Notes: generated from the letters alone by a model not told the origin. DNA of 64,000 nucleotides from Candidatus Levyibacteriota bacterium (GCA_027459725.1 DAIDHK010000002.1:105866-169865), one strand, 5' to 3'. Positions 25,669 through 62,416 are shown, counted from the first letter of the stretch. Program-made: numbers and translations.

Positions 25669-25674
25669 AATATC

Positions 25675-25689
25675 CTTATTGTAGCAAAT
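25675..25689 (-). promoter_or_regulatory. Extended -10 promoter element TGCTACAAT 9 nt upstream of the galE ATG
   Basis: Minus-strand ATTTGCTACAATAAG. The identical 15-mer recurs at 43300..43314 upstream of another operon head. A CTGACA -35-like hexamer lies 17 bp upstream. Confidence 0.4.
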
Positions 25690-25777
25690 ATAATTATAGA
25701 TGTCAGGATAAAGTGAGTTGGTTTAGTCCAACCTTGTATAACAATAATCTGGCTGGTAGTATATATAAATATCTGAG

Positions 25778-27268
25778 ATGAAAATAATTTACTATCTGAA
25801 ACGAAAAATAAAAAAAATAGACCATAAATTTGTTATTCCGTCTGGTTTGATAATCCTTTTCGCTGCTGCTATTAGATTCTATAACTTCCAAAATCAATGG
25901 ATTCTATGGACTGATCAGGCTTCATTTGCTCTGTTAACAAGATATGCTCTTTTTAACTTTAAACTACCCTTACTTGGTCAATTTACCTCAGCAGGTCCTT
26001 TTCAAGTTGGTGGAGAGTGGTATTGGTTTTTGATGATTGGACAGGCATTATATCCTTTCTCTTTTCTCTCACAATGGGTATGGCTAATATTACTCTATAT
26101 TCTTTTCGTTATAGTGATAATGTACTTTGCGAAACAATTAGTTGATAAAAAGTTTGCGTTGATAGTTGGTGTAATAACTGCATTTTCCCCAGCAGAAATT
26201 TATCAAGGTTTTAACCTTGAAAACCTCTCTCCAATTCCTTTTTTATCACTTTTAGCTATGGTTTTTTCTATTAGATATATACGCAAAAGTAATAGTCTAG
26301 ATTTATACTTACTTGCCTTGATTTGTGGACTAGCTCCTGCATTCCACCCTCAAGGCTTTGCTCTATTATTATTGCTCGCAACCACTTTAATACTCAAAGG
26401 TAAACCGAAATGGGTATATTTATTATGCATTCCTCTTCTCTTATTGCCGTGGCTACCTGTCTTTATCGCAGACTCTCAAAATCATTTTCATAACACTCAA
26501 AATATGATTAATTATTATTTATTCGGGCAGAATAAAATTCCACTTGATGTTTTAGGTCGAAGGTGGTCTACTTATCTTGGTGTTTTTATACCCCAATCGT
26601 GGGCATATATTGTAGGTGGATGGCCAATTTTAGCCTATTTGACCATGTTGGGAATATTATTACTAACCGTTTATAACGCTCTAAAACTCAAATTAACAAA
26701 AGAATGGTTGGTAATAATATTATCCTTCTTAATGATACTAACTCTTTTCCGATACTCACATGTCCCGCTCTTCGGTACTTATCTGCTAACCCTACACCCA
26801 TATATTATACTATTGACTGGTTATCTTATATATTTTCTGATAAACAGATATTTTCTTATAGGAATTATAAGCCTAATTATTCTAACTATTGGAAGTTTTT
26901 ACAAATATTCTAAGGGACTCGTTTCTGAAAACTACAATGCCCTTCAGGTATCTAATCTGGAAAAAGTCTTAGTAGATAAGTATCCCCACCAATCGTTTGC
27001 CATTTATGATTATCAAGATAGCGCCGTAGGTATAAGTGAAGCACTATCTCTCTACCTCTACAATGATAATAAGATTGATGATAAGGGTAAGAAAATAGGA
27101 ATAACAACCAGACAAACAGATAACTTATATAATATTTATACAGATAAAAAAGGATATACCTTAGAAGATCTCTCTGAATCAAATGATTCTAAACTAAATT
27201 CAAAAGAATGGGATTTAGTAAATCCGAGTTCAATTTATCATAAAGTGCAGGAATGGTTCAAAAATTAG
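25778..27268 (+). CDS. Polytopic membrane protein, uncharacterised GT-C-like family A (paralogs 28559 and 30021)
   Basis: 496 aa. The N-terminal loop motif TDQASF...PLLGQFTSAGPFQVGGEWYW is shared with D..RD...GP..G...FGPWYY in both paralogs. Confidence 0.6.
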   Translation: MKIIYYLKRKIKKIDHKFVIPSGLIILFAAAIRFYNFQNQWILWTDQASFALLTRYALFNFKLPLLGQFTSAGPFQVGGEWYWFLMIGQALYPFSFLSQWVWLILLYILFVIVIMYFAKQLVDKKFALIVGVITAFSPAEIYQGFNLENLSPIPFLSLLAMVFSIRYIRKSNSLDLYLLALICGLAPAFHPQGFALLLLLATTLILKGKPKWVYLLCIPLLLLPWLPVFIADSQNHFHNTQNMINYYLFGQNKIPLDVLGRRWSTYLGVFIPQSWAYIVGGWPILAYLTMLGILLLTVYNALKLKLTKEWLVIILSFLMILTLFRYSHVPLFGTYLLTLHPYIILLTGYLIYFLINRYFLIGIISLIILTIGSFYKYSKGLVSENYNALQVSNLEKVLVDKYPHQSFAIYDYQDSAVGISEALSLYLYNDNKIDDKGKKIGITTRQTDNLYNIYTDKKGYTLEDLSESNDSKLNSKEWDLVNPSSIYHKVQEWFKN

Positions 27269-27700
27269 CAAAAATGAATAGTAACTTTTCCCTGTTTGCC
27301 AAAGTAAAACAAAAAATAGTAATGAAAGTGAAGCAAACAGAGCCACGAAGGAATGCTGCATTAGAATTGTTGAACTATCTATTAACTGTGGAGAAAAAAC
27401 AGACAGGATTAACATTATTAGAAATCCCAATCTCCCGCTTTAACGAAAACCTATTAAAGACAGGACAACTAAGGTAGATACAGCACATATTCCTAATATA
27501 ATCCATGGTCCATAAAAAGTAGGGAAAATTACAAGTCCAAGCATAATTGACCATAAATAAACAGGCCCGAAAACAAAAGGCCCAGCTGAGCTGAAAGAAC
27601 CAATAAGTGGGATTGAATGTCTCATTATTGCTTCTTTAGCAATTGATAAGTCACGTCCGTTATCAACACCTATTTGAATTCAGTAAAGAAAGTTATCTAA
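27230..27700 (-). pseudogene. Frameshifted, decayed inverted copy of the N-terminal region of a family-A membrane protein
   Basis: Minus-strand fragments IGVDNGRDLSIAKEAIMRHSIPLIGSFSSAGPFVFGPVYLWSIML... (preceded by a TGA) and, in another frame, ILSVFSPQLIDSSTILMQHSFVALFASLSL. They parallel residues ~45-160 of 25778..27268. Confidence 0.45.
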
Positions 27701-27795
27701 ACGAAGATAGAGAGCAATGATTACAATAATTGTTACAAGGATATAAATCTAATTTTTCTTATGAAAAATGTAATGCCTGGATAGCCTTAGACTCT

Positions 27796-28557
27796 TCACT
27801 TCATTTTCAAATACTTTCGATATGCCATGGGAAAACGAAGTGCAGAGAATAAAGAGAAAACAAATCCCTGCCATCCGTCCATAAAACCTTTATGCCTACC
27901 ATAGGTTAGTACAAACCACCAAGCTGGTTTAAAAAACGAGTAGTTTATAAACGTAAAAAAGCTTTTACTAGTATTACTTTCTGCTAATTCATCTGCAATA
28001 CGATCAGTATATCGATTTAGTCTTAATAAATAACGTTTAAATTCAGGGTCTGAGAGATGAATCATAGGCTCTTGCAGATATCCAACTTTACCTTCAACTA
28101 TTGCCTGCTCATGAACATCTTTTAAAGCAAAATGAACCTTCCCTTTTCTATAGAGCCTTAACTGATAATCTGGATATACACCACCCTTCATTAAATAACG
28201 TCCTAAATACCAATTTTTACGCGGTATCCAATAACCATTAAATTTATTATCATCGTTTATTAGAATATCTCTAATTTCTTTTTCTAATGCAGGTGTGATT
28301 CTTTCATCTGCATCCAGATTGAGAATCCAGTCTTTTGTTGCCATATCAATTGCTTTCTGGCGATTGATTAAAAATATTGGCGGATTATCTGTAATTTTTA
28401 TTTTTGCTCCATATTTTTTTGCTATTTGTACAGTTTTGTCCTTTGATGTACCATCTACTACAATAATTTCATCGGCGATACCCTTTATAGATTCAAGACA
28501 ATCAATCAAGTTATTCTCTTCATTATATGTAGAAGTTATAAAAGAAAGTTTTTTCAT
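27796..28557 (-). CDS. GT2 glycosyltransferase (DADE-motif subgroup)
   Basis: LSFITSTYNEENNL and ILNLDADERI. Paralog of 43362..44111. Confidence 0.75.
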   Translation of the reverse strand: MKKLSFITSTYNEENNLIDCLESIKGIADEIIVVDGTSKDKTVQIAKKYGAKIKITDNPPIFLINRQKAIDMATKDWILNLDADERITPALEKEIRDILINDDNKFNGYWIPRKNWYLGRYLMKGGVYPDYQLRLYRKGKVHFALKDVHEQAIVEGKVGYLQEPMIHLSDPEFKRYLLRLNRYTDRIADELAESNTSKSFFTFINYSFFKPAWWFVLTYGRHKGFMDGWQGFVFSLFSALRFPMAYRKYLKMK

Positions 28558-28558
28558 C

Positions 28559-30019
28559 CTATTTCCTCCATCCCTCTAGTGTATCACTATAAACTATTTC
28601 AGGTGTAATTAATTTCCACCCCTGATTTTGAATATCACTCCTGCTTGTGTGTGTAAGATTTATATTAATAATGGTAGCTGTAATTTTAAGAGGACAATTA
28701 AAATCTGCCATACCTAACCTAGCGCCCGAACCAGTCAGAGATAGCCTATTAGCCTGTAGCAAAAAAAACTCAATTCCCTGTGCATAATTTTGACCTCCCT
28801 TTCCACATGCATATACTGCAATTTTTTTATCGGGATACTGATGCATAAAGTTAAATGCTATAGTCCTCATAGTCAGCTGATCAACCCTAGATCTGAGGGG
28901 AATAATATCCTGTCTAATCATAAAAAATGAAAGAATTATTAATACCAATCCTGTAATAACAAAGCCAAATTTTATATTTTTCATTTTCCAAAGGGCAATT
29001 GCGAAGAAAATGAATATAAAACTATGCAAGTAAAGATAGTAATAATAGTCTCTTTGAGCTATAACGTATCTTAAAACTAAAAAGTTTATTGCAAATGTAA
29101 GCAATAAATACATATATATATGTTTTATTTTTCTCTTAAAAATAATAATCAATAATATAACTGATACGAATAGCAGTATTATTATTCCTCCTATGTAATT
29201 AATACCGAAGATATAAGACCAGAAAGGGAGCCAGAAATGAAATAAATATAACTTCCATCCATTTGGAACATATGGATGGTGTATAGCAAAGTATTCTATC
29301 CCTTTTAAAGTTTGCCCATGACTAAGAAAATTAAAAACAATTAAAGGAATCCATGGGGGCAGGAAACCTGTAATAAAAGCTAATAATCTTTTAAGTATAT
29401 TTTTATTAACAATGACAAAAAATATGATGGGTAGAACAATTAATCCCAGCATTTGATAATGAATATTAATCCCTATGCTTAGTACAAATCCCCAGAGGAA
29501 AAACCACCAGACCGAAGGTTCTTTAGCCAGATATAACTTCACAAATAGCCATATTACAATCACTGAGTATAAAGGAATTAGATCCGGATTGCTCAATCCT
29601 TGAGTTTGGCCTGTTTCAGATGGAGAAACTGCAGCCAAAAATGCCAATAGCAGACCGAACCATTTATTTTCCAGTAATTCACCTATTTTATAAAGAAATA
29701 AACTTACCAGTACTGAAGAAATACCTACCAGATACCAAGCTGAATAATAGAACGGAAAAATTATTTGCCATATAATCATTTGATAGTAATACCAAGGACC
29801 AAATGTTATAGGAGCTATACCAGATGCAGCTCCTACTAGAGGAAAACTAAAGGTTTTAGCTCCATATAAAATTATTAAAGCGTCTCTTGTAGGATCAAAA
29901 TCAAAACCATACCGGGCAGGAGTATTATAGAAGCGAAAGAAGATTGATACGAGGAGTATCAAAACCAAAAGTAGATTCGTTAGACTAAAATATTTTTTCT
30001 CTATAGTATTTATTTTCAT
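28559..30019 (-). CDS. Polytopic membrane protein, family A paralog
   Basis: ORF 28559..30094. The probable start is the internal ATG near 30019 (MKINTIEKKYF), 1 nt after the upstream stop. N-terminal loop FDPTRDALIILYG...GPWYYYQ. Confidence 0.6.
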   Translation of the reverse strand: MKINTIEKKYFSLTNLLLVLILLVSIFFRFYNTPARYGFDFDPTRDALIILYGAKTFSFPLVGAASGIAPITFGPWYYYQMIIWQIIFPFYYSAWYLVGISSVLVSLFLYKIGELLENKWFGLLLAFLAAVSPSETGQTQGLSNPDLIPLYSVIVIWLFVKLYLAKEPSVWWFFLWGFVLSIGINIHYQMLGLIVLPIIFFVIVNKNILKRLLAFITGFLPPWIPLIVFNFLSHGQTLKGIEYFAIHHPYVPNGWKLYLFHFWLPFWSYIFGINYIGGIIILLFVSVILLIIIFKRKIKHIYMYLLLTFAINFLVLRYVIAQRDYYYYLYLHSFIFIFFAIALWKMKNIKFGFVITGLVLIILSFFMIRQDIIPLRSRVDQLTMRTIAFNFMHQYPDKKIAVYACGKGGQNYAQGIEFFLLQANRLSLTGSGARLGMADFNCPLKITATIININLTHTSRSDIQNQGWKLITPEIVYSDTLEGWRK

Positions 30020-30020
30020 A

Positions 30021-31553
30021 TCAGATCTTTCTAGTTTGAACAATGATATGACCCGGAAGGGAAACTTGTTTGATAAGCTTTCCTCGTTTTTCATGAAGAG
30101 AAAGCCATGCCTGCCTTAGTGTAGGATGCGTATTATCTGGTTCTATTATATAAAACAGCAGATGACCATTATTACTGGGTTCATAATATCGTTTCCCATA
30201 AAAAGCGAACAAGTACTCATAAGTATAAGGATGTATAGGCGGTGTATAGACATCATAGTTAAATGGTCTACCAGATGCCTGAGAATAAATATACTTAATT
30301 ACTCCAGCCTGATTGTTATAGATAGAAGGATTGTTGATAAAAAAATCGGTTTTAATAGGCCTATATGAAATTAATACTCCCAGAATATACAATATTACTA
30401 AAACTATAAACAGCTTTGTATAATTATTGCTTTTTTTTCTCAGATAACAGAAAAATTTGTATATGAACAGTAATAATACAATCTCATATACGACTGGAAC
30501 TCCTACCACAAAGTGATCCCATACATTACCCTTAAAAAATGACAGAATTATAATATAAGAGAAAAGATAAGAAAGACTAAATACAATTAGCAGGTTTTCC
30601 ACACTATTAAATTTTGTTTTAGCTTTTAAATAAACTAAACCTAAAATAATAATTATCAAAATAGTAACTGCCAAAATAAACGGCATATTAACTGTTGCTT
30701 GCCATAATTGCAACATTAGACTTACTACTTTCACAAACTGTTCCGAAATTCCCCCCGATTGACTAACAGGAGCATGATGAAAAATATAATTAAACAATGC
30801 TCTAGTCATAAGGTAGTGATGTCTAATCTCAAAAAGAATTCGAGGCAATTCTATAAGCAATAGCCCTAGAATGAAAGCAGTAACATGATGAAAATTAATT
30901 TTGTTTCTTAGATAAATTAGCATAAATATAACGATTGATATAAACTGAATTGAACCATAAACTATCTCTAGTGAGTCAAAACTAAGCGCGCTCAAGATCC
31001 CGATCAGAAACATCCAAGCTGTCTTTTTAAGAGAAGATTTCTCTTCATTAAACTTTATGATCGATACAAGAATAAGTGTCAAAATTAAAGGAGCAATATT
31101 AGGATTCCATATCTGTGAAGAAGTATCTATTAAAGAGCCTGCAATACCAAAGAAAATCATAAATAGAAGTCCAGCCCATTTACCTCCTATTTTTGTACCA
31201 AGCCAGTATGCAAGCAGAACAGTGGCAATTCCAGTTAATCCCATAACAGCATCTATTCCTTTCACACTTCCTGAAAATACTATGAAAAATGGAGTAAGCA
31301 GCCAATACCACCATGGACCATAAAAAATACCCTCCTGTCCGGTTGTTGGACCAATCAGACTAATATGATGTCCATCTACAATTTGAACAATATTAAGCAT
31401 ATCCCTGCCGATATCATAAGTGTAAGCAAAAGTACCGAAAAAAGAACTTTGCAATCTTAAGAACGAGGTGACCAACAAAATTACTATAAATAACACCCAA
31501 TATGTTTTTGTAGACTTAATGAGTGGCATACATAGGTTTAATAAAATTATCAT
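30021..31553 (-). CDS. Polytopic membrane protein, family A paralog
   Basis: 510 aa. N-terminal loop YDIGRDMLNIVQ...IGPTTGQEGIFYGPWWYW. Its N-terminus overlaps the 3' end of 31516..33258. Confidence 0.6.
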   Translation of the reverse strand: MIILLNLCMPLIKSTKTYWVLFIVILLVTSFLRLQSSFFGTFAYTYDIGRDMLNIVQIVDGHHISLIGPTTGQEGIFYGPWWYWLLTPFFIVFSGSVKGIDAVMGLTGIATVLLAYWLGTKIGGKWAGLLFMIFFGIAGSLIDTSSQIWNPNIAPLILTLILVSIIKFNEEKSSLKKTAWMFLIGILSALSFDSLEIVYGSIQFISIVIFMLIYLRNKINFHHVTAFILGLLLIELPRILFEIRHHYLMTRALFNYIFHHAPVSQSGGISEQFVKVVSLMLQLWQATVNMPFILAVTILIIIILGLVYLKAKTKFNSVENLLIVFSLSYLFSYIIILSFFKGNVWDHFVVGVPVVYEIVLLLFIYKFFCYLRKKSNNYTKLFIVLVILYILGVLISYRPIKTDFFINNPSIYNNQAGVIKYIYSQASGRPFNYDVYTPPIHPYTYEYLFAFYGKRYYEPSNNGHLLFYIIEPDNTHPTLRQAWLSLHEKRGKLIKQVSLPGHIIVQTRKI

Positions 31554-33258
31554 TAAGCAGTGTGGTAATCACACTGTTTACATCATCTTTGTTAATAAAC
31601 ATATCTATATCAAGACTATATTTACTATTCTGTATTGTGGAGGTATATCTGATATTACCCTGTTGATATTGGCTCAAGGTTATATAATTAGAGTTAAGAA
31701 AATTCATAAAATAAGAACCATATTTAGTTGGGTCAGAGCCTAATATAAAATAACCCCTCTGGAAAAATATCACTTTAGGTTTATGAGCAGATATCTCAGA
31801 GATAAAACTATTTTGTATTCTTTGCGACTTACCCATTCCAGGTATTAAAATATGATATTTAGAAGCCAGTTTGCCAGTAGCATAGTAATAATCTTGAAAA
31901 TCAAGCGGCCCCATCCAAATATAATCATTTGGCCCTGAAACGGCGTTGTTTATATTGACTGCAGGATCATAAGTATCATAGATTCTTGGTGCAGTACCCA
32001 TATACTTTCCATATGCTTTACCTAAAAATCTATCTGTCAGCATAGCAATACTAAAAAAACTATAGATTAAACATAAGCTAAGAAGACCTGAAAGTATTAT
32101 CTTTTTACCTAATGCAATTTGAAGATGAAGCTCATTATATAAAGCAGAAAGGACATATACCAGAGAAATTAAAGACATGAAAATATATACGCTTGATTGA
32201 TAATCAGTTTCTCCAGAATTAAGGGGATTAGACCTTGCATTGGAATAAATCATAAAAATTATGATAAAGACAAACAAAGAATAATTTCTTCTAAAAAAGA
32301 CATAAACCAATAATGATAGATCTACTACTGCCAATGTTATGTTTAATGGGAATGGAAAATTAAAATTCTTTACTTGCACTAACAATGTATAGAAATTACT
32401 GTAAAAATTGTATGCCATTACTATGGCAAAACGAATAGGATTAATATGACCATTATGAAGATTAGGATAATTGTATATATAATACTTTTCATTAAATATG
32501 ATTGATTGATAAATATAATCTGACAAACTTCCTGTCAAAAGCAAATAAATCATAAAGACTACATAAGGAATGGCAAGGATTATGAATAAATTCACTATTT
32601 TTTTTAAATTTAAGTTGTTACGATAATCCTGAAAATAAGCCAAAAGTAAAAAAAAGTAGATAAAGGCACAAAGATAAATGTCTGTCAGTGTATTTAAAAC
32701 TGTTAATGCATTAAAAATTGAAATAATCCAAATATCTCTAAAATTTATTTTTTCTTTATAAATATATTTGAGTAGAAAAAAAACGAAAATTGCTCCCATT
32801 AAATATCCACTTAAGCTGTCTGCAATTAGCATGTGAGCCCAAAAATATGTTGCAGCAATCCCTATTAACAAAGAAAAATACAAATAAAACTTTGTAGCAA
32901 TCACACCAAAACGCGATTTCAAATATAAATACCATAAAAAAATGAATAAACTCAAGAAAATTCCATAAACAACTCTGAATCTGACAAAAGAATGGCCACT
33001 AAAGATTTGCACAAAGGCAGAAACAAAATAAGCAACAGGGCCATGATGACTAAAAAAACCACTAAAAGGCAGAACCCCATGAAGGATATACCAACCTCCT
33101 AAGAGATTATCGAATTCATCAGGATATGTTTCGTGAAAGGCGTTGATATAAAAAAGTATTAAAGTAATCGCAAAAATTACCCACTCGAAACCTGATATTC
33201 TTATACTTTTTAATCTTATTAGAATCTTATTGTTTCCAACTTTTGTAAATAAATTCAT
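31516..33258 (-). CDS. Polytopic membrane protein (GT-C-like, family unassigned)
   Basis: 580 aa. N-terminal TM region with a PDEFDN loop, then a C-terminal hydrophilic domain of ~180 aa. Confidence 0.5.
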   Translation of the reverse strand: MNLFTKVGNNKILIRLKSIRISGFEWVIFAITLILFYINAFHETYPDEFDNLLGGWYILHGVLPFSGFFSHHGPVAYFVSAFVQIFSGHSFVRFRVVYGIFLSLFIFLWYLYLKSRFGVIATKFYLYFSLLIGIAATYFWAHMLIADSLSGYLMGAIFVFFLLKYIYKEKINFRDIWIISIFNALTVLNTLTDIYLCAFIYFFLLLAYFQDYRNNLNLKKIVNLFIILAIPYVVFMIYLLLTGSLSDYIYQSIIFNEKYYIYNYPNLHNGHINPIRFAIVMAYNFYSNFYTLLVQVKNFNFPFPLNITLAVVDLSLLVYVFFRRNYSLFVFIIIFMIYSNARSNPLNSGETDYQSSVYIFMSLISLVYVLSALYNELHLQIALGKKIILSGLLSLCLIYSFFSIAMLTDRFLGKAYGKYMGTAPRIYDTYDPAVNINNAVSGPNDYIWMGPLDFQDYYYATGKLASKYHILIPGMGKSQRIQNSFISEISAHKPKVIFFQRGYFILGSDPTKYGSYFMNFLNSNYITLSQYQQGNIRYTSTIQNSKYSLDIDMFINKDDVNSVITTLLNDNFIKPMYATH

Positions 33259-33259
33259 A

Positions 33260-34936: not shown

Positions 34937-34937
34937 A

Positions 34938-38299: not shown

Positions 38300-38322
38300 A
38301 TATTATGCATAACAGGAATTGT

Positions 38323-39980: not shown

Positions 39981-39994
39981 ACTTTTAATTCACT

Positions 39995-42229
39995 TTATAA
40001 TAAGCTTATCTTGTATTCTAGCGTATGGGTGCCAGCGGGAACAAGTACTCCTCTATAATTATAATCTGTCCGGTAAATTTTAGCCTGTTTACCATCAATA
40101 TATACCTGCCATGTGGGGTAGTAACTATCGGTTAGAACAACAAATCCTGGATGTGCATTTTTAGTGATTAAAATAATTTTATTAGCGGTATAAGTCTCTA
40201 TTTTTACCTTACCTTTTAGGATATTTTGTTGTTTAAATTTAGAGTCATTAATCACTGCGTTATTTAAAAGATTAACTTGTAGTGTTGTTGATAGATCTTC
40301 ATTTTCTGTTTTTGTATTAATAACTTTACTGACCATAAAAGCTCGTGGGAATACGTTTTTATTTTGATAAACATATGTATATCCGTCATTATAAACTTTT
40401 TGTAGTCCCGGAGAGTTAAGAGTTTTATTGAGTGAAAGAATATATTTTACTCCAAGAAAGTTCCTCAAAGATGGTGTTATGGGCTCAGCAGTAAATATCC
40501 TATTAAAGGGCAATTTTGTTTGATATTTTTTATATCCAATATTCCGTGCGATTAACTGCCCATAATTTTTTAAATACAATGGATCATATCCATCTATTGA
40601 CTGCAATCCATACATTACGGAGATATCCGGAGGCATGATCATATTATTATCAGTAGTATACCTGTAGTTGCCAATATTAGACTGCAAAAATTTCAAAACA
40701 GCTGTCGATGGATATACATATACTTTATTCGTAAAAGACAAAAACTTATCTGCAAATCTTAAAAGATCAAAGGATGTGATCAAAATTAAGGCAATAACAA
40801 TTAAGAATATATATTTTTGTTTAATAAATAGATGACTTGTTAAAATAATAAATATATTCAAAGTGATTAAACCTACCGGCAGGTAAAGATTGTGTTCGGT
40901 TACACTAAGATCTGTGGCTGGAACAATATGTTTGACAAAAGTAAAAAATACCATAACTATAGTAAATAGAATCATTATTAACACAGGTAGATAAATTTTC
41001 TTACTTTTTCCATTTATAAACATTTCCATACCAAAAGCAGCAAGCATAATCAATGAAAAATCAATTAAACTATTCAATCTAGTAGGTTGAGAAGTGGAGA
41101 TAACTGGTACCGCTAGTTGGTATGGCAAGAATGAAATAACTGAGGGTAAAGCAAATAATAGTCCTACAAGTGTCCATGTAGAGAAAAATTTTACATACCA
41201 GTTTTTGATATTAGTAAATCCTAACAGAGCAAAAAATAATGGGCTAATCCCTATATATCCCACGAATTCTCCATAATTCCACACTCCCCAATAATTAAGA
41301 GTTGTGGGATTACCAAAGTAATCAGGAGCTAAATACTGAATAAGATTTTGCCATGGTATAAACCACCCTGCTTTATGCCAATCTTGTTGATCAAGAGTTC
41401 TAGCTGAAAGTGTTACAAAATGTAAAAATGGATACCATTGTATGAAAGTCAAAATAAGAAAGATGATGAATAATAAGACGAATAATGTAATTATCTTTAT
41501 TTTATTTTTATAGTGCCAAATTTTTAGTATAAAATAAGAAAAAACCATTAGTGATATGTAAAAGAACACTTGAGTATGACCGGCAAGAAAGCTCGATGTT
41601 AGTGAAAAAACGAATATTATACTCCAGATCAGACGCTTTTTATTCTGATGTATTAATATTTTTTCAATGGACAATAAAAGTACAGGCAGCCACAAAAAAG
41701 TCTGTATCACTGTGTTCCATTCATACCACGCTACAACAAAACCACAGAAACTGATAGTCAGTGAACCAAAGACCTGACTAAACAGATTGAGCTTTAAGAA
41801 TCTTAAATAAAGAAATGTAAAAAATGATAACAATACAGTTTGCAATAACACCTGAATACTCCATCCCTGTAAAAAGGGAGAAATTAAATAGATGATATTC
41901 AAAGGATAGAATACACCTGTTTGGAAATTAGCAAGAAGAGGTGTACCGGTAAAAGAATATGGATTCCACAATGGTAAGTTGCCTGAGCTTAATAGGTTAA
42001 GGCTAAGTTTTCTCCATGGATATTGTTGACGAAATGGATCAGTAATTAAAGAATTTTTGTAGGCTATACCATTTGGGTTGGTAGCTACATATATATCTCT
42101 AAAAGGGTAATAAATACCTATCATAGCATCGGCTGGGAATGGAACCTTTCCTCTAATAAGAAAAGGACTAGCAAAGATCGTAAATACTAATAATAAAAAA
42201 ACTATGGCTATTATTAAACGTTTCTTCAT
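39995..42229 (-). CDS. YfhO-like GT-C membrane glycosyltransferase
   Basis: 744 aa. N-terminal loop GKVPFPADAMIGIYYPFR...LWNPY, ~13 TM, and a C-terminal extracytoplasmic domain ending ...VPAGTHTLEYKISLL. Assigned by recalled family features, not by search. Confidence 0.5.
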   Translation of the reverse strand: MKKRLIIAIVFLLLVFTIFASPFLIRGKVPFPADAMIGIYYPFRDIYVATNPNGIAYKNSLITDPFRQQYPWRKLSLNLLSSGNLPLWNPYSFTGTPLLANFQTGVFYPLNIIYLISPFLQGWSIQVLLQTVLLSFFTFLYLRFLKLNLFSQVFGSLTISFCGFVVAWYEWNTVIQTFLWLPVLLLSIEKILIHQNKKRLIWSIIFVFSLTSSFLAGHTQVFFYISLMVFSYFILKIWHYKNKIKIITLFVLLFIIFLILTFIQWYPFLHFVTLSARTLDQQDWHKAGWFIPWQNLIQYLAPDYFGNPTTLNYWGVWNYGEFVGYIGISPLFFALLGFTNIKNWYVKFFSTWTLVGLLFALPSVISFLPYQLAVPVISTSQPTRLNSLIDFSLIMLAAFGMEMFINGKSKKIYLPVLIMILFTIVMVFFTFVKHIVPATDLSVTEHNLYLPVGLITLNIFIILTSHLFIKQKYIFLIVIALILITSFDLLRFADKFLSFTNKVYVYPSTAVLKFLQSNIGNYRYTTDNNMIMPPDISVMYGLQSIDGYDPLYLKNYGQLIARNIGYKKYQTKLPFNRIFTAEPITPSLRNFLGVKYILSLNKTLNSPGLQKVYNDGYTYVYQNKNVFPRAFMVSKVINTKTENEDLSTTLQVNLLNNAVINDSKFKQQNILKGKVKIETYTANKIILITKNAHPGFVVLTDSYYPTWQVYIDGKQAKIYRTDYNYRGVLVPAGTHTLEYKISLL

Positions 42230-43296
42230 GAATGTATTATTTTGTTTAGTGAGTCAAAAAATACTTGATAACTAAAGTTATCCGCACGTAATCGTGATTG
42301 CTTTGAAAGATAGTCATAAAGTTTTGAATCTTTAATTAAATCGTCTGTTCGCTCTATCAATTCATTGACTGTTTTCCAGGTAAGACCATAGTTATCATCT
42401 CCAACAATTTCCGGCAATCCACCAGCAGCAAACACAACGGGGACACAACCAGTACTCATAGCCTCAACTACACTTATACCAAAGTGCTCTGTTCTCTCTG
42501 GATATTGCAGAATATCTTCCCCAAAACCTGTAGCATGCCAGTAAATAGAAGCTTTATTATACAACTCAACAAGCGTTTTATAGTCTATATTCTCCAAAAT
42601 CTTTACAGGCAAGCCTTCTGCTTGTTTTTTTAAACTATTGACCAGTGTTCTATCTTCTTCGCGCATTCCCCCCGTAAGGATTAATTTCCAATCTTTATGT
42701 ATTAAATTTATCTTTTTGAATGCCTCTAGCAAAACATCCTGTTTTTTTGCATTCATATTAGCAGTAAACCTTCCAACTGAAAGGATTATCTTCTCTTTCT
42801 CAGACATTGCATAACTTAAGTTATCAACAGCCGGATAAATAACAACTGTTTTCTTCTTTCCTAATTTATTATCAATATGTTTTTTTACAAATTTAGAATT
42901 ACAAATTATTTTGTTGATAAGTCTAAGTTTTAATGAATCTGTTGGTTTTAACTTCACCCAATCGATCGGATGCTGGAACATTAAAATATTTTTTTTGGAA
43001 AAAAGAAAGGGAATACTTCCATCACTAAGATAAAATATTACATCAAACTGTTTACTTATATTATATTTGGTTAATAAACTTACTTTTGATGAGAATATGT
43101 TATTTATAAAGTTTAGATCAGATATATCTATGTTAAAACGATTCCTGGCTACACTAATAATCTCATCTTTCTCTGAAGGATTCCAGAAAAAACTAACATC
43201 ATAAGATTGTTTTTTAAAATATACAGCTGCCTGTATAAAATACCTCTCTCCACCACCCATGGTATCTAGATATGGATCAAAAAAAGCAATTTTCAC
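42226..43296 (-). CDS. GT4 glycosyltransferase (GTG start)
   Basis: Codon 1 is GTG at 43296..43294 (VKIAFFDPYL). The C-terminal half is GT-B-like (TEHFGISVVEAMSTG). Confidence 0.7.
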   Translation of the reverse strand: MKIAFFDPYLDTMGGGERYFIQAAVYFKKQSYDVSFFWNPSEKDEIISVARNRFNIDISDLNFINNIFSSKVSLLTKYNISKQFDVIFYLSDGSIPFLFSKKNILMFQHPIDWVKLKPTDSLKLRLINKIICNSKFVKKHIDNKLGKKKTVVIYPAVDNLSYAMSEKEKIILSVGRFTANMNAKKQDVLLEAFKKINLIHKDWKLILTGGMREEDRTLVNSLKKQAEGLPVKILENIDYKTLVELYNKASIYWHATGFGEDILQYPERTEHFGISVVEAMSTGCVPVVFAAGGLPEIVGDDNYGLTWKTVNELIERTDDLIKDSKLYDYLSKQSRLRADNFSYQVFFDSLNKIIHS

Positions 43297-43299: not shown

Positions 43300-43314
43300 C
43301 TTATTGTAGCAAAT
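43300..43314 (-). promoter_or_regulatory. Extended -10 promoter element TGCTACAAT 6 nt upstream of the GTG start
   Basis: The 15-mer ATTTGCTACAATAAG (minus strand) is identical to the one upstream of galE. It follows a 65-bp intergenic gap. Confidence 0.35.
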
Positions 43315-48086: not shown

Positions 48087-48786
48087 TTTTTAAATCCCAC
48101 CAGAGAATAAGGCTCTCTAGAACCGCCCTAACAACGACAGGAACATTTGCTCCTGTAGGCTTCCCATGTAGTCTTGGATAATGCTCTACACCCACTTGTG
48201 TAATCTTTAATTTCTTTATGGTTGCTTTTGCCAATATTTCAGTTGTAATCATTGCCCCTTCTGATCTAAGTGGCATAATTGACTCCAGTGCACTTTTCCT
48301 AAACATCTTAAATCCACAATCTATATCTTTAAAATGAAAATGAAACAACATAAAATCCCAAATTTTAAGCAGATTCATTAGTAAATGTCTAGCCAACGGA
48401 TCCTTTCGAGACTTACGATAGCCAATAACCATATCAGATTTTTGTATAGCGGCTATAAATTTATCTATTTCTGTAATATCAAATTGTCCGTCGCCGTCTG
48501 TAAAAACAACAAATTCATATTTAGAATTTATGAATCCTTCTTTAAGTGAAGCACCGTATCCTCTATTTGGGTGATGCGAGATTACTTTTAATCTACCATC
48601 TTTAACTGTTAATTTTTTCGCTATATCTAGTGTTTTATCTATGGAGCCATCATCTACCATCAGAATCTCCCACTTAGTTGCCACTTTATCTGCAACTTTA
48701 ATGGCATTGTTAACAACTTCTTCAATGTTTTCTTCCTCGTTCCAAAATGGAAAAAAAATTGATAACTCAGGTAACATTTCACTCAT
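48073..48786 (-). CDS. DPM1-like polyprenyl-phosphate sugar synthase (soluble GT2)
   Basis: LSIFFPFWNEEENI, MVDDGSIDKT and FTDGDGQ. Confidence 0.75.
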   Translation of the reverse strand: MSEMLPELSIFFPFWNEEENIEEVVNNAIKVADKVATKWEILMVDDGSIDKTLDIAKKLTVKDGRLKVISHHPNRGYGASLKEGFINSKYEFVVFTDGDGQFDITEIDKFIAAIQKSDMVIGYRKSRKDPLARHLLMNLLKIWDFMLFHFHFKDIDCGFKMFRKSALESIMPLRSEGAMITTEILAKATIKKLKITQVGVEHYPRLHGKPTGANVPVVVRAVLESLILWWDLKNGRF

Positions 48787-52129: not shown

Positions 52130-52132
52130 ATA

Positions 52133-53836: not shown

Positions 53837-53841
53837 ACTTT

Positions 53842-55383: not shown

Positions 55384-55432
55384 AGTTTGATTATAAATTT
55401 AAACAACAATATTAGCAAATGAGATAATTCTT

Positions 55433-55460
55433 TTGCATTTTTGTATTCTTGAGTTAGAAT
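55433..55460 (+). promoter_or_regulatory. Sigma70-like promoter (TTGCAT-16-TAGAAT) ending 6 nt before the ATG at 55467; leaderless candidate
   Basis: TTGCAT at 55433..55438 and TAGAAT at 55455..55460. No SD between the -10 and the ATG. Confidence 0.35.
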
Positions 55461-55466
55461 ATAAGC

Positions 55467-56804
55467 ATGACCTCAACAAAAAATAACACATTAAAACATA
55501 AACGTTTATTATTTAACTATATCTATAAAGAAATTTCTAACCATAAATTAGAAGTCCTAACTTTTATAATCTTTCTTATTGTATTCATCTTTCTAAGATC
55601 ATACCAGTTAGAAGCAAGAATGTCCTTTAACTTTGACCAGGTAAACGGAGCCTGGGCAGCCAAGGATGCACTAGTTGATCATCACTGGCCATTAACTGGT
55701 CCAGTCGCTAAGCAAAACTCGGGTTTTTCTATGGCACCTTTATATTATTATATTTTGATTCCATTTTATTTTATTTTTAACTTACATCCCATCGCCTCGG
55801 GGGTTGCTGCTATTTTTATCAGTACCTTAACCTTTTTGTGTTTATTTTTTGTTGTTAAAAATCTATTCAATACTAAAATAGCTTTCATTGCAGCCGGTAT
55901 AGATCTTGTATCAGTATATATTATTAATTCCGATAAAATTGATTGGAATGCTGGAATAACCGTGATCACTTCTACATTGACGTTCTTTCTCCTGTACAAA
56001 ATACTAACTGGAAAAGTGAAAATGATAATTCCTTTATCTTTAGTCTTAGGTCTTTCGTTAAGCGGAGATTTTACAAATATTTTCTATTTCTTTATTGTTT
56101 TACTATCTCTTCCTTTCTTCCCCAGAAAAAGACAGGTTCTATTCTATTCCCTGCTGGGTATAGCAATAATTATTCTGATGATAAGTCCAGTTATTATAAA
56201 TGAAATGACAATGCATAGAAGTCAAGGGACTAATCTACTAACTTATATGGGAACTTATTATCATGGTTTTCACCTAACCCGATTCTTACAGCTTAGAAGA
56301 GATGCTTTTATTGAGTTTGTGATGATTTTTGGCAACAATATTGTGAGCTATTTTGATTTTCTTCTTCCTTTACTATTTATATTTCTTTATGTACGTCAGC
56401 ACAAGAACAAAGAAGCAATCATTTTTTCAATACTTGTCGTTCTCTGGTTTTTTATTCCATGGCTAGTTTTTACAGCTTATAGCGGAGAAATAAGCAACTA
56501 TTATTTTTATATGACCCGTCCTGTTATCTTAATGATGCTAGCATATTTCACTTATAGACTTCTATTTACTCAGCAATTAATTATAATAATATTCGTAGTT
56601 ATTTTTTGGGGATATTTTTCTTACTCTAACTTAATAACTTTTTTTCAAGAGAATCCGGGAAATGATTTTCTTAATGCCAAACATTTGATTACACCTGAGG
56701 TTCAGGCACATAATACTAGCGTGAGACATATTTACTCAACTCCAGAAGCATATCTGCAATTTTATTATGAGGACTATAAAAACTTTAACTTAAATGATAA
56801 TTAA
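55467..56804 (+). CDS. Polytopic membrane protein (GT-C-like, unassigned)
   Basis: 445 aa with 12+ TM. Loop FDQVNGAWAAKDALVDHHWPLTGP. Confidence 0.5.
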   Translation: MTSTKNNTLKHKRLLFNYIYKEISNHKLEVLTFIIFLIVFIFLRSYQLEARMSFNFDQVNGAWAAKDALVDHHWPLTGPVAKQNSGFSMAPLYYYILIPFYFIFNLHPIASGVAAIFISTLTFLCLFFVVKNLFNTKIAFIAAGIDLVSVYIINSDKIDWNAGITVITSTLTFFLLYKILTGKVKMIIPLSLVLGLSLSGDFTNIFYFFIVLLSLPFFPRKRQVLFYSLLGIAIIILMISPVIINEMTMHRSQGTNLLTYMGTYYHGFHLTRFLQLRRDAFIEFVMIFGNNIVSYFDFLLPLLFIFLYVRQHKNKEAIIFSILVVLWFFIPWLVFTAYSGEISNYYFYMTRPVILMMLAYFTYRLLFTQQLIIIIFVVIFWGYFSYSNLITFFQENPGNDFLNAKHLITPEVQAHNTSVRHIYSTPEAYLQFYYEDYKNFNLNDN

Positions 56805-58072: not shown

Positions 58073-58832
58073 CAGAGATAATGTTCTTTTTTATTGCAAG
58101 CAAGTCGATAAATCCGGCTATTGAACTGCGTAAAGGGCTTACTCTTCTTGTCTCGACATGTAACCAACGAACAGGTATTTCTTTTATATTGTACCCCAAC
58201 TGTTTGGCTAAATAAAGAATTTCCATATCCATACCTGCTGAAACATTTGCCCCTGAGACATTTTTAAAGCCATGATGAATTTCTGAAAACTTTGTGAAAA
58301 GTCTCTGAGCACTCTTGTGGGTGAACATTTTGAAGCCGCATTGGGTATCGACAATTTCTGGTAGACCGATCAGCATTTTACGCAGCACTACTGCTGCTAT
58401 TGAAACAAATTTTCGAGTCCAGGGCGCACCTTGACGTTGATTACTTCGAGACCCAATCACTATATCATAACCATCTTTGGTAAAAGGGAAAAATTTACTT
58501 ACTTCTTCAATAGGAGTGGCCTGATCCATATCAGAAAATAAAATATTTTCTCCTTTGGCGGCTAAGACCCCTGTCGTAACCGCTCCGGCTTTCCCACTAT
58601 GTTGATTCTTAATCAGAGAGAAATTATCGTTTTGTTTAATAAAATCTTCTATGAACTCAACGCTTCCATCATGGGATCCATCATCGACTACAACGACTTC
58701 ATAATAGTACTTGGTTCTATCTAGAAAATGTTGTACTTTGTCGAGAACACCTTTTTGTAGGTTAGCCATTTCATCGTAACATGGAATTACAACTGATAAA
58801 TATATTTTCCCGTTCACAGAGAAATTATACAA
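58059..58832 (-). CDS. DPM1-like polyprenyl-phosphate sugar synthase (soluble GT2)
   Basis: LSVVIPCYDEMANL, VVDDGSHDGS and FSDMDQA. The ORF-track start is TTG at 58832, but that TTG lies inside a -10 box, so the real start is probably GTG at 58817. Confidence 0.7.
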   Translation of the reverse strand: MYNFSVNGKIYLSVVIPCYDEMANLQKGVLDKVQHFLDRTKYYYEVVVVDDGSHDGSVEFIEDFIKQNDNFSLIKNQHSGKAGAVTTGVLAAKGENILFSDMDQATPIEEVSKFFPFTKDGYDIVIGSRSNQRQGAPWTRKFVSIAAVVLRKMLIGLPEIVDTQCGFKMFTHKSAQRLFTKFSEIHHGFKNVSGANVSAGMDMEILYLAKQLGYNIKEIPVRWLHVETRRVSPLRSSIAGFIDLLAIKKNIISGVYK

Positions 58833-58852
58833 GAAACATTCTCATCTGTCAT
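58824..58852 (-). promoter_or_regulatory. Sigma70-like promoter ATGACA-17-(TG)TATAAT, 7 nt upstream of the GTG start; leaderless candidate
   Basis: Minus strand reads catgacaGATGAGAATGTTTCTTGTATAATttctctGTG. The -10 lies at plus 58824..58829, TG at 58830..58831 and the -35 at 58847..58852. Confidence 0.45.
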
Positions 58853-58902
58853 GCTTCCTTTCCAACAACCGACCTAATTCTTACATTAATTTAAGCTTCT
58901 GA

Positions 58903-58931
58903 TTGCCCAAACCTAACAATTAAGATAAAAT
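58903..58931 (+). promoter_or_regulatory. Candidate tRNA promoter TTGCCC-17-TAAAAT
   Basis: TTGCCC at 58903..58908 and TAAAAT at 58926..58931, ending 18 nt before the mature tRNA 5' end at 58950. Confidence 0.35.
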
Positions 58932-58949
58932 ATGCATGCGAAGAAAGAT

Positions 58950-59022
58950 GGCCCCATCGTCTAGTGGTCTAGGACAGTGGATTCTCATTCCACTAACTGG
59001 GATTCGAATTCCCATGGGGTCA
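58950..59022 (+). tRNA. tRNA-Glu (anticodon CUC)
   Basis: Folded by hand. Acceptor GGCCCCA/TGGGGTC with one G-U, U8, D-arm GTCT/AGTGGTCTA/GGAC, anticodon stem GTGGA/TCCAC, loop TTCTCAT with U33 and A37, variable TAAC, T-arm TGGGA/TTCGAAT/TCCCA, discriminator A. CCA is not encoded. Confidence 0.8.
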
Positions 59023-59096
59023 CACCAATATTTAGCCTCAAGCACAGATTTTGTTTCGTGACTTATTTATGCCTGCACCCACTTCAATTCGAACAC
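59015..59096. repeat. Repeat copy 1: last 8 nt of tRNA-Glu plus ~75 bp downstream flank
   Basis: gggtcacaccaatatttagcctcaa...gtttcgtgacttatttatgcctgcacccacttcaattcgaacac. It recurs at 61982..62059 (first 25 nt 21/25 identical) and partially at 60610..60668 (44-nt core 34/44 identical). Confidence 0.55.
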
Positions 59097-59268
59097 TTTT
59101 CTTTGATATTCTAATATTTACTATTTTTAAGATTCTTACTCCAAATAATTAGCTGATTTTATTGAATTTCACATATGCTAGCCACAAAAATATACTAGGT
59201 ATGCTCATATATATAAATTATCCATTGACATTAGTGATTTAAAGAGATTTACTTGTTGTAATTTATTA

Positions 59269-59294
59269 ATTACATATATACGTATATATGTAAT
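59269..59294. promoter_or_regulatory. Perfect 26-bp palindrome ATTACATATATAC|GTATATATGTAAT; putative operator overlapping the promoter of 59310..60497
   Basis: Read directly and exactly self-complementary. It ends 16 nt before the ATG. A TATAGT -10-like hexamer (59297..59302) lies 7 nt before the ATG. Confidence 0.45.
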
Positions 59295-59309
59295 AATATA
59301 GTTACATGT

Positions 59310-60497: not shown

Positions 60498-60609
60498 ACA
60501 TACTACAAAACTTCTAGCTCAAATTTATCCAGATCTTGGTGCAATTTAATCAGTCTGAAACTAAAAGTGTTCCTACTATGAACCAGCAGGCTCACATGTT
60601 CTTTTATCA

Positions 60610-60668
60610 TCAGGCACAAAATAAGTTTCGTGCCCATTTTATCCTTTCGCCCACTGTAATTCGAACAC
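60610..60668. repeat. Repeat copy 2 (partial, ~77% identity to the core of copy 1)
   Basis: gcacaaaataaGTTTCGTGcccATTTTATcCTttCgCCCACTgtAATTCGAACAC aligned to 59043..59096. Confidence 0.45.
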
Positions 60669-60725
60669 AGACTCAATATATTAATACTTGATATAATAAA
60701 CTTAGCAGTATAAGCTAAATTTAAG

Positions 60726-61040
60726 ATGTCAAATGATAGGAAAATACTTTTTCGAGTAGTTGGAGGATTATTCTTCCTCGTAGGATTATTAACTTTTGAT
60801 GGCTCAGCATTAGTTCCAGGATTTAAACCTTCAATGGAGCAAACGGTAATGGGAGTAGTTTTCTTAGCGCTTGGACTATATTTAATTTTCTTATCCAATA
60901 AAAAATTTGCAAATAAAGAGTGGTCTAAGCCCATGGTGAATGGAGCACGAACAAAGATCTATGTTATAGGTGGGATTTTATTACTTCTAGTTCTCGCATT
61001 TGTTGGTTTCTTTGTATTCATGCTCGCAACCAGCCATTAA
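60726..61040 (+). CDS. Small membrane protein (3 predicted TM)
   Basis: 104-aa ORF with three hydrophobic stretches. The antisense ORF 60503..60934 is considered spurious. Confidence 0.4.
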   Translation: MSNDRKILFRVVGGLFFLVGLLTFDGSALVPGFKPSMEQTVMGVVFLALGLYLIFLSNKKFANKEWSKPMVNGARTKIYVIGGILLLLVLAFVGFFVFMLATSH

Positions 61041-61232
61041 TATCCCCTATTTCTCTTCTTAATCCATTTTGTATAATTCTTCTCTAAAATCAAAGTCTAT
61101 TTCTTTCAGTTTTTTATATAGTCGATAAAATTCAGCTAAAACAGTGTTCCACCTATGAATAAGTTGGCTCACCGAAGGGAACATGACTATCCGAACATTG
61201 CATAATATCTTAATCTATCAATGTGGCAAATT

Positions 61233-61646
61233 TTAATAAAAAGGATTGATTGCAGAAACCTCAGAAAATAATTGTAAATCTTTCGTATTATCAGTTGCTA
61301 TTTTTACAATACTATTACTTATCGCTGTAGCCACTAAGTAAGCGTCAATAATTTGATTTGAAGTGATTTTATATTTTTTTATTAGCTCCAACGCAATACG
61401 ATGTGTTCTATAATCAGGAACAATAATATTAGAAGCGAGTAAAATGCTATCAATGGCGACTATTGCATCATTAATTCCCATTGGATTTGAAAATTTAGAA
61501 TGAGTTAGTACTCGTAGTGTTTCAAATATATTTTGATGGGCAATCTCTAATTGTCCTCTATTTTTTTGAAGAAATTCTTGTGCTTTCTCATGCTTTGGAG
61601 AGGATGAATTAATCGAATAGACTAATATATTTGAATCGATGAGCAT
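61233..61646 (-). CDS. vapC: PIN-domain toxin (VapC family)
   Basis: MLIDSNILVYS...D... acidic-residue pattern of the PIN fold. 137 aa, directly downstream of a small antitoxin-like gene. Confidence 0.7.
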   Translation of the reverse strand: MLIDSNILVYSINSSSPKHEKAQEFLQKNRGQLEIAHQNIFETLRVLTHSKFSNPMGINDAIVAIDSILLASNIIVPDYRTHRIALELIKKYKITSNQIIDAYLVATAISNSIVKIATDNTKDLQLFSEVSAINPFY

Positions 61647-61648
61647 GG

Positions 61649-61885
61649 TTATTTTGGTTCTGAATAATAATCAGCTCGTTTTAGATTATCCAATGGGACG
61701 CCTAAATCATGCGTCTTAAAAACTATCTTTTTTGCTTGCTTTTGAGCATCATGTTCCAAATATTGTGCTAAAGCATCATTAAAGATATCTTGTAGTGTTA
61801 TATGCATATTAAGAGCTTTTTGTTCAGCTATTCTTTTTAAGTTTTCATTTATTCGTAAGCTTGTCCGTACTAACATATCACTCAT
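61649..61885 (-). CDS. Type II antitoxin (VapB-like), paired with the PIN toxin
   Basis: 78-aa ORF ending 2 nt before the vapC start. Charged and partly helical; it matches the TA operon arrangement. Confidence 0.55.
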   Translation of the reverse strand: MSDMLVRTSLRINENLKRIAEQKALNMHITLQDIFNDALAQYLEHDAQKQAKKIVFKTHDLGVPLDNLKRADYYSEPK

Positions 61886-61981
61886 TATGCCATATATATG
61901 TCAATATGTCAATGATCATTATCATATACATTCAATAAATGATCTAGCCAAGCGAATGTCGATTCGAACTGTGATGCCTTC

Positions 61982-62059
61982 GGGTCACATCTATATCTAG
62001 CCTCAAATCATAAAACATCTTCGTGCGTAATTTACTATTCAGCCAGAAGGAATTCGAAC
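61982..62059. repeat. Repeat copy 3: degenerate copy of the tRNA-Glu 3' end plus downstream flank
   Basis: gggtcacatctatatctagcctcaa...ttcgtgcgtaatttac...aattcgaact. It is preceded at 61948..61981 by a T-arm-like tcgattcgaa fragment. Confidence 0.5.
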
Positions 62060-62416
62060 TCGAAGTATTGGAGGTAGTGAATAAATGTGCTCCTCTAGTA
62101 TATTCTCCTTTAGGATCTCCCGAATAGTTTATTGCATGTAAGCCTTGACCTATAAGATTACGTAAATTCTCTGGTGTTATTTAGGTTTTCCTTTTCTTGC
62201 AGCCTGCTCTGCAGCAGCTATATCATATATCTAATCAATACTCCCCATTATCGAAGCGACTTTGCTTAGATCATGCTCTGGCCCTAAATCAACCAAATCG
62301 GCTTTAACTTCTGTGTTCTATCTCATTATAAAATCCAATTTTACCACAAATATTATTGTAAAACTAAGTAAAAATTTTTATTGATCTTTTTAAGTATTAT
62401 AGGGTATAATACACAA

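Follow-up and report, generated by a model that had tools for sequence, protein, structure and literature searches.

In leaderless initiation a 5′-terminal AUG or GUG is recognised directly by the ribosome and the initiator tRNA. Among the closest described systems is group C of the GeneMarkS-2 classification, for which the passages that define the group (PMC6028130) place a Pribnow box (TANNNT) 6-8 nt before the start of those genes that come first in an operon and put the leaderless share of operons at an estimated 25-50%; typical members belong to the Actinobacteria, Mycobacterium tuberculosis for one, and to Deinococcus-Thermus. For the low-GC group C genomes of Mycoplasma, 30-60% of transcripts have been predicted to be leaderless (MetaGeneMark-2 preprint). 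Within the candidate phyla radiation (CPR), a subgroup of the Parcubacteria often lacks the CCTCCT anti-Shine-Dalgarno (anti-SD) sequence, with 48% detection, in the section of Tsurumaki et al. 2022 that treats it (PMC9297842). This report concerns a 64-kb stretch of DNA (DAIDHK010000002.1:105866-169865; the whole stretch is called the window) in which promoters of the sigma-70 type end directly before the start codons at about half of the operon heads, and in which Shine-Dalgarno (SD) sequences are no more frequent than in control regions. With good probability, the mRNAs made from these abutting promoters, which serve about half of the transcription units, are leaderless or nearly so.

The window uses genetic code 11, has a GC content of about 32% (30-34%), and holds about 50 closely packed genes, the majority on the minus strand. 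The genes scanned or read are chiefly GT2, GT4 and PMT_2/GT-C glycosyltransferases; galE, an AAA_14 ATPase, an antitoxin-PIN pair and one tRNA-Glu are present as well. GalE of the window shares 89% identity with its counterpart in a Candidatus Levyibacteriota metagenome-assembled genome (MAG; locus L001) and 63-66% with those of other Levybacteria, and the synteny of the galE-GT4-flippase-GT2-GT4 operon is kept in 10 Levybacteria loci. The window is therefore taken to come from a Levybacteria genome (Microgenomates, CPR/Patescibacteria).

At 7 of the 14 operon heads in the window a complete sigma-70-type promoter ends 6-7 nt before the start codon, and at galE it ends 9 nt before it, so that the proposal of a preliminary description of this DNA, that promoters abut starts at operon heads, is borne out. 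On the minus strand the leaderless-type sites are TTGGCA-17-TGgTAAAAT (5492..5520), 6 nt before ATG 5485 of a GT2 gene (4556..5485); the extended -10 element TGcTACAAT (43303..43311), 6 nt before GTG 43296 of a GT4 gene (42226..43296); TTGCTA-17-TATAAT (55390..55418), 6 nt before ATG 55383 of a PMT_2 membrane glycosyltransferase; ATGACA-17-TATAAT (58824..58852), an 11/12 match lying 6 nt before GTG 58817 of a GT2 gene; and TTGACA-17-TGgCATAAT (61884..61912), an 11/12 match plus TG that ends 7 nt before ATG 61876 and overlaps ATG 61885. On the plus strand, TTGCAT-16-TAGAAT, or TTTGCA-17-TAGAAT (55432..55460), lies 6 nt before ATG 55467, and TTGATC-18-TATAAT (62381..62410) lies 6 nt before ATG 62417, both being of the same type. 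The galE promoter, CTGACA-17-TGcTACAAT (25678..25706, minus strand), stands 9 nt before ATG 25668 and has a predicted leader of 0-3 nt. Hexamers related to TTGACA are found 16-18 bp from the -10 element at 5485, 25668, 55383, 55467, 58817, 61876 and 62417, and TGn is found just upstream of the -10 element at 5485, 25668, 43296 and 61876, as well as in the TGgTAGTAT of 25778. The promoters of 55383 and 55467 stand back to back in an 83-bp divergent intergenic region. The same sigma-70 consensus also serves a non-coding gene, since TTGCCC-17-TAAAAT (58903..58931, plus strand) lies 18 nt upstream of tRNA-Glu(CTC) (58950-59023).

The remaining heads are more varied. At ATG 59310 (plus strand), the start of an AAA_14/DUF4143 ATPase gene, the hexamer TATAGT (59297..59302) lies 7 nt upstream with no recognisable -35 element, which makes it a weaker case. 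TTGTAT-17-TGgTAGTAT (25734..25762, plus strand) is situated 15 nt before ATG 25778, with a predicted leader of 8-9 nt and no SD, and TGaTATAAT, 28 nt upstream of 60726 (plus strand), would give an ordinary leader of about 22 nt, again with no SD. No clear promoter was seen at the heads 4333 and 11435, both on the minus strand. The preliminary description had listed seven -10-like hexamers 6-9 nt before starts, and all seven are present in the DNA, although two spacings and one sequence needed correcting and the box at 25778 lacks a final T. It was exact for TAGAAT-6 at 55467(+), TATAGT-7 at 59310(+), TGcTACAAT-9 at 25668(-) and TGcTACAAT-6-GTG at 43296(-); at 62417(+) the TATAAT stands, at 6 rather than 7 nt. 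At 58817(-) the hexamer is there, although the quoted TGTTATAAT-7 is wrong and the true arrangement is TTGTATAAT, that is TTG-TATAAT-6 nt-GTG. The TGn extension ascribed to several of the sites is found at 25668 and 43296 (TGcTACAAT in both) and is not canonical at 58817, where the TG abuts the hexamer. TATAAA-8 (25764-25769) does precede 25778, although as a -10 element it was rejected in favour of TGgTAGTAT-15, as the invariant T is missing from position 6 of the hexamer and the better promoter lies upstream. Three heads, 5485(-), 55383(-) and 61876(-), had been overlooked.

These distances depend on which start codon is used, and a rival explanation accepts the promoters as real and takes the mRNAs to be leadered, the true starts lying further downstream or the main transcription start sites (TSS) belonging to promoters further upstream, in which case the A/T-rich boxes would be part of the 5′ UTR. 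The start codons of genes in MAGs are predictions, three starts in the window had to be re-chosen, and in some orthologues the -10 element lies 8-15 nt from the start. Leadered mRNAs are nonetheless an unlikely explanation, because conserved fold elements at the N-terminus pin down, to within a few residues, where galE, lepA in related loci, the GT2 genes at 5485 and 58817 and the GT4 gene at 43296 begin. ATG 5485 is anchored because the GT2 domain begins at residue 3; the GT2 domain of the other gene starts 7 residues past GTG 58817; the protein from GTG 43296 begins with VKIAFFDPY, the first strand of the GT4 fold, which a start at the first ATG (43260) would truncate; and GalE carries GGAGYIGS at residues 7-14. 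Moreover, within 75 nt upstream of 58832, 61885 and 62381 there is no alternative promoter-like site, and the intergenic regions measure merely 65-110 bp, two of them holding paired divergent promoters.

The re-chosen starts follow from the position of the promoters themselves. TTG 58832 lies within the promoter of 58817, and GTG 58817 is therefore taken as the start, as the preliminary description had proposed; the best promoter match of the region there, ATGACA-17-TATAAT, precedes this GTG. TTG 62381 is part of the -35 box TTGATC, and the start of that open reading frame (ORF) was therefore moved to ATG 62417. Since ATG 61885 overlaps the -10 box, the start of the antitoxin is implied to be at Met4, ATG 61876. 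In these three genes the choice concerns N-terminal extensions of 3-12 residues. The toxin-antitoxin pair itself (61233-61885, minus strand) consists of an antitoxin of 75-78 aa with no Pfam match and, 2 nt further on, a PIN-domain toxin; the pair is driven by TTGACA-17-TGgCATAAT, the strongest promoter match in its region.

Taken alone, a -10-like hexamer says little in DNA of 32% GC and is barely beyond chance: TANNNT occurs at a frequency of 0.032 per nt, so that 15% of arbitrary starts carry one at spacer 5-9 (the spacer being the distance in nt from hexamer to start codon), and 29% of internal gene starts do so. Nor is there an overall excess of promoter-like matches in the window over shuffled sequence (101 versus 104, 94 versus 100.5, and 120 versus 113), which is why the test was switched to position relative to starts. 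The notion that TATAAT-like hexamers are ubiquitous in such DNA and that those near starts were simply picked out draws on exactly these figures, and positional evidence makes it extremely improbable. Among 46 Levybacteria heads taken by the first-ATG rule, full promoter matches peak sharply at spacer 6, and 11 of the 46 have one at spacers 6-9, against 0.41 expected; the heads of Firmicutes and Mollicutes loci passed through the same pipeline gave zero full matches at these spacers. Where Levybacteria heads carry the hexamer, 13 of 20 also show, at 16-18 bp, a -35 box with no fewer than 4/6 matches (background 14%, p=2.7e-7), and 6 of 20 a TG extension (background 5%, p=4e-4). This co-occurrence is confined to heads, as among internal genes with the hexamer both features are at background (-35 in 6/36, TG in 3/36). 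When all data sets are pooled, TGn is present at 22 of 34 leaderless-type heads, against the 5% background.

Within the window, the composite promoter at spacer 6-7 in 7 of 14 heads compares with 1.06% of all ATG/GTG trinucleotides (p=5e-11); the result keeps p=9e-8 when three candidate starts are allowed per gene and p=1e-5 when it is restricted to the four unambiguous starts. Judged at the first codon, 8 of 14 heads and 1 of 37 internal genes have a composite promoter. The sole internal case is ATG 22389 of a GT2 gene inside the galE operon, 9 nt after the candidate internal promoter TTGATT-16-TAAAAT (22399..22426, minus strand), which could be due to chance. The nucleotide before the start codon carries a further signal: C stands at -1 in 38% of leaderless-type heads, whose selection took no account of it; the share is 16% in other heads and 10% among internal genes. 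This enrichment, of C at -1 with a purine at +1, matches the preference of RNA polymerase for starting at C(-1)A(+1).

The enrichment is replicated in independent loci. Housekeeping genes were reached through the LepA protein, identified by Pfam, in the flank of a Levybacteria MAG (L018), which led to 80 metagenomic loci. The composite promoter is present at spacer 6-9 in 18 of 79 heads of the lepA loci (null 1.1%, p=9e-19), and in more distant lepA loci (43-51% LepA identity) in 28 of 281 heads (p=6e-20), with the peak again at 6. The start of lepA is fixed by the conserved IRNFAIIAHxDHGKST, and among the 17 closest loci (57-79% LepA identity) TTGnnn-17-TAnnnT or TGnTAnnnT lies 6-7 nt before it in 8, 8-10 nt in 4 and 14-15 nt in 4. 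Other genes of the lepA-centred loci show the same promoter-start arrangement: serS has TTGACC-17-TATAAT-6-ATG, rpsL in L081 has TGtTATAAT-9-ATG, and ftsK and a pilN-like gene share the pattern. A small gene with a conserved N-terminus (a weak PilN match in L085, from the one copy scanned) has the promoter TTGACA-17-TAGACT, conserved to a striking degree, 6-9 nt before its ATG in six metagenomic loci, all on the minus strand (L085 2851, L087 7900, L088 2337, L092 2950, L094 6582 and L096 7849).

For galE, whose start is fixed by the conserved N-terminus MxxLVTGGAGYIGS, an extended -10 element (TGnTAnAAT; TG-TATAAT in L005) precedes the start by 6-12 nt in 8 of 10 Levybacteria. The spacer is 6 nt in L001, L002 and L006, 7 in L005, 8 in L018, 9 in the window, 11 in L003 and 12 in L004. 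In L036 and three other CPR loci TAAAAT or TACAAT lies 6-8 nt before galE, and all galE genes of Firmicutes and Mollicutes that were examined have a GGAGG-type SD instead. That the upstream architecture of galE and lepA is kept across genomes likewise runs counter to chance as the source of the motifs. The interpretation put forward in the preliminary description is thus essentially right, and these data support its extension from seven sites to a lineage-wide property.

In its geometry the window resembles group C, with a peak at 6 nt, 7-9 of the 14 heads involved and the signal confined to operon heads. It differs in base composition, as group C genomes that use code 11 are almost all high-GC (MetaGeneMark-2 preprint) and the window is at 32% GC, and in the treatment of the remaining genes, as internal or leadered genes of group C use SD sequences whereas those of Levybacteria are at background. 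Low-GC Mycoplasma (code 4) share the AT-rich, reduced genome and the -10 box adjoining the start; unlike Levybacteria, they still yield a ribosome-binding-site model for their remaining genes. The window belongs to a different phylum from the Mollicutes and uses code 11, and Mollicutes loci are SD-rich in the same pipeline. Neither CPR nor Microgenomates is among the lineages named in the main text of the published group C descriptions, and full-text literature searches returned no description of leaderless mRNAs or of general SD loss in Microgenomates or Levybacteria. The mechanism is known and not mechanistically new; the novelty is the lineage, for which no earlier description was found.

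The SD core was sought in positions -18 to -4, with the same crude gene caller for all groups. It occurs at 6-13% of genes in the window and in Levybacteria, which is the level of control regions, compared with 55-71% in Firmicutes/Mollicutes and with 66-71% in the Mollicutes loci. The position profile has no G peak; A is enriched at -10 to -2 and again at +4, +5 and +7, T at -1. The energy of the duplex with the canonical anti-SD, over 170 Levybacteria genes, is -2.0 kcal/mol upstream of starts versus -1.7 in controls (p=0.19), the corresponding values being -7.4 versus -2.4 kcal/mol in Firmicutes (p=2e-15) and -6.5 versus -1.6 kcal/mol in Mollicutes (p=2.2e-9). The earlier remark that none of the seven starts has a good SD is true, and the lack of SD holds for internal cistrons and for 10 related genomes as well. 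Two SD-like sequences were considered and rejected. AAGGA, 4 nt before the galE ATG, is not found in the 89%-identical L001 and would precede the predicted TSS; GGAGG, 7 nt before ATG 28557, is not kept in the 84%-identical L001 orthologue and falls within the coding sequence of the upstream gene. When scanned with Rfam, neither the window nor about 470 kb of related loci yielded an rRNA gene; the window gave its single tRNA, and a Saccharibacteria locus gave a tRNA and RNase P RNA. The lepA-centred loci L081-L097 (217 kb) have zero tRNA or other RNA genes by Rfam or ARAGORN.

The absence of SD sequences invites comparison with the Bacteroidetes (GeneMarkS-2 group B), where SD sequences are likewise lacking ahead of first and internal genes and start regions are A-rich, as set out in the group B passages of PMC6028130. 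A rival explanation would have the A/T-rich boxes be such a non-SD ribosome-binding signal in leadered mRNA and not promoters. It can point to the missing SD, to upstream regions that are A/T-rich in all genes, with the preference for A at -10 to -2 and T at -1, and to the enrichment of TTAA, AAAT and AAATA ahead of internal genes. According to the same passages, Bacteroidetes mRNAs are leadered with the non-SD motif at all genes, so that the motif should precede first and internal genes alike; here the composite signal is confined to heads. A -35 box 17 bp upstream would be meaningless to a ribosome, and the tRNA gene carries the same consensus, all of which makes a group B signal very unlikely. 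The specific signal of Levybacteria is a promoter at operon heads, and internal genes offer only A/T richness and tight coupling: among 124 of them no discrete or G-rich motif was found, the enriched k-mers are only the A/T-rich ones, in part derived from upstream stop codons, 36 of the 124 overlap the upstream gene by ATGA, and most others begin within 10 nt of the upstream stop.

In the explanation favoured here, that of promoters abutting start codons, the housekeeping sigma-70-type polymerase would use TTGnnn, a spacing of 16-18 bp, TAnnnT and often TGn, with the -10 element ending 6-7 nt ahead of the start. In 49 bacteria the distance from the -10 element down to the TSS centres on 7 bp (PMC12641261), and a 6-nt spacer would therefore make the first base of the start codon, A or G, the +1 position. 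Genes with ATG would thus be transcribed from its A and genes with GTG from its first G, whereas leaders of 0-3 nt would follow from spacers of 7-9 nt. By analogy with known leaderless mRNAs, the ribosome and initiator tRNA would bind the 5′-terminal start codon directly, with no pairing between mRNA and 16S rRNA. The SD-less, A/T-rich starts of downstream cistrons mostly overlap the stop codon before them or follow it at no more than 10 nt, so that initiation there would probably proceed by coupling or re-initiation, helped by A-rich, unstructured start regions. The sequences themselves show the anatomy of the promoters, their enrichment at this position, their confinement to heads and recurrence in relatives, and the lack of SD signal; from promoter position and the C(-1)/purine(+1) enrichment we infer the TSS positions, and by analogy the mode of translation.

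Several points weigh against this reading. Leaderless transcription and translation are deduced from sequence and not from transcript 5′ ends. Between 4 and 5 of the 14 heads in the window do not fit: 25778 would have a leader of about 9 nt and 60726 one of about 22 nt, and 4333 and 11435 have no clear promoter. In 3 of the 7 spacer-6/7 cases a start other than the most upstream one was required. Spacing also varies among orthologues (6-12 nt for galE, 6-15 nt for lepA), so that some of the genes called leaderless have leaders of 2-9 nt. The metagenomic lepA loci carry no taxonomy and are assigned solely by 57-79% LepA identity to the Levybacteria MAG, and genes were called by a crude ORF rule. 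Finally, the SD is not extinct in the lineage: groEL, which follows groES, has AAGGAG or AGGAGG 4-8 nt upstream in L081 (13429), L083 (14049) and L097 (14335), and rpsL of L083 (7450) keeps a well-placed SD in TGcTATAAT-11-AGGAGG-6-ATG. The groEL genes of L084, L089, L092 and L094 have no such SD, and neither has rpsL of the sister locus L081.

The AGGAGG before groEL and rpsL in this subclade is an indirect argument that the anti-SD is still present and suggests that it is seldom used, in agreement with the finding that within the CPR only a Parcubacteria subgroup often lacks CCTCCT. In the Bacteroidetes the anti-SD is sequestered on the ribosome. With the anti-SD-less Parcubacteria the Levybacteria have in common that, in a lineage of the CPR, pairing of SD with anti-SD seems to be dispensable; the difference is that the Parcubacteria finding concerns the 16S 3′ end, that Microgenomates are not flagged in that section of PMC9297842 and that the AGGAGG of the subclade points to an intact anti-SD. 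The SD-keeping subclade of Levybacteria-like loci has a GC content of 41-42% and looks like a natural gradient of SD retention. A broader proposal is tentative and falls a little short of probable: that Levybacteria, and possibly much of Microgenomates/CPR, initiate translation almost wholly without SD-anti-SD pairing, the anti-SD probably being present, with leaderless or short-leadered heads, coupled downstream cistrons that start in A-rich, unstructured regions, and SD sequences confined to a handful of genes with very high expression in certain subclades. Were this SD-independent default to hold, CPR would be the third large bacterial group with a non-canonical default mode of initiation, after Bacteroidetes and the leaderless-rich Actinobacteria/Deinococcus, and the default may be linked to the reduced ribosomes of CPR (no uL30, often no bL9, and a short bS1).

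Gene finders that expect an SD will misplace starts in genomes of the Levybacteria type; in the window the starts at 58817, 61876 and 62417 were shifted, and GTG 43296 was taken over the first ATG at 43260. Knowing where promoters lie can help to settle starts and operon limits in CPR MAGs, whose annotation is otherwise difficult. The NCBI pipeline uses models of the GeneMarkS-2 type, and existing annotations may already hold the pattern implicitly. The window adds a deep-branching, low-GC lineage with ultra-small genomes to the wide users of leaderless mRNA, combined with SD-less internal cistrons. This is relevant to the question whether leaderless initiation is an ancestral trait or has arisen repeatedly through genome compaction, and to start-codon selection by the reduced CPR ribosome. 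The first genetic systems in Patescibacteria also gain from it concrete pairs of promoter and start to test.

Some of the loci used for comparison carry doubtful labels. L003 and L006, as well as L009, L025 and L079, are labelled 'uncultured Gammaproteobacteria'. L003 and L006 contain the Levybacteria galE operon, syntenic with the window (64% GalE identity), with SD-less, leaderless-type starts; because of this synteny and start type, their MAG taxonomy labels look wrong. L003, at 1.32 Mb, may be a near-complete Levybacteria genome. L007 (JADPRS010000039.1, 'Lutibacter sp. B2') has a canonical SD at about 80% of its genes, which is atypical for Bacteroidota, and the contig may be a contaminant or mis-binned.

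The window has other features of note. At least 11 tandem paralogues, encoding multi-pass membrane proteins of about 510-580 aa, occupy 28559-38299 and 48783-56804; in the three scanned, PMT_2 matches are weak, moderate or none, and the genes are interleaved with GT2/GT4 genes. Together they form a very large glycosylation island for proteins or the cell envelope, with related arrays in L001, L036 and L017. Two mechanically called ORFs overlap their upstream neighbours, 28559-30094/30021-31553 by 74 nt and 20540-21727/21643-22389 by 85 nt; in both cases the gene probably begins at an ATG further downstream (at about 30019 and 21646), which would bring the stop-start junction back to the usual 1-4 nt. 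The minus-strand ORF 60503..60934 (143 aa) is probably spurious; the plus-strand ORF 60726..61040 overlaps it, and the 104 aa of its product appear from sequence to include three segments that are hydrophobic and likely span the membrane. In 61913-62380 (about 470 nt) and 63000-64000 (about 1000 nt) neither strand has an ORF of more than about 85 aa, which is unusual for a compact genome, and nothing in these two intervals reached Rfam gathering thresholds. Lastly, the minus-strand ORF 3794..4333 (179 aa) resembles the N-terminal half of a GT4 enzyme and lies directly upstream of a full-length GT4 gene (window 2658-4333); its N-terminus is similar to that of this neighbour (MKIGIDIS... versus MLIGIDGN...), and it may be a truncated duplicate.

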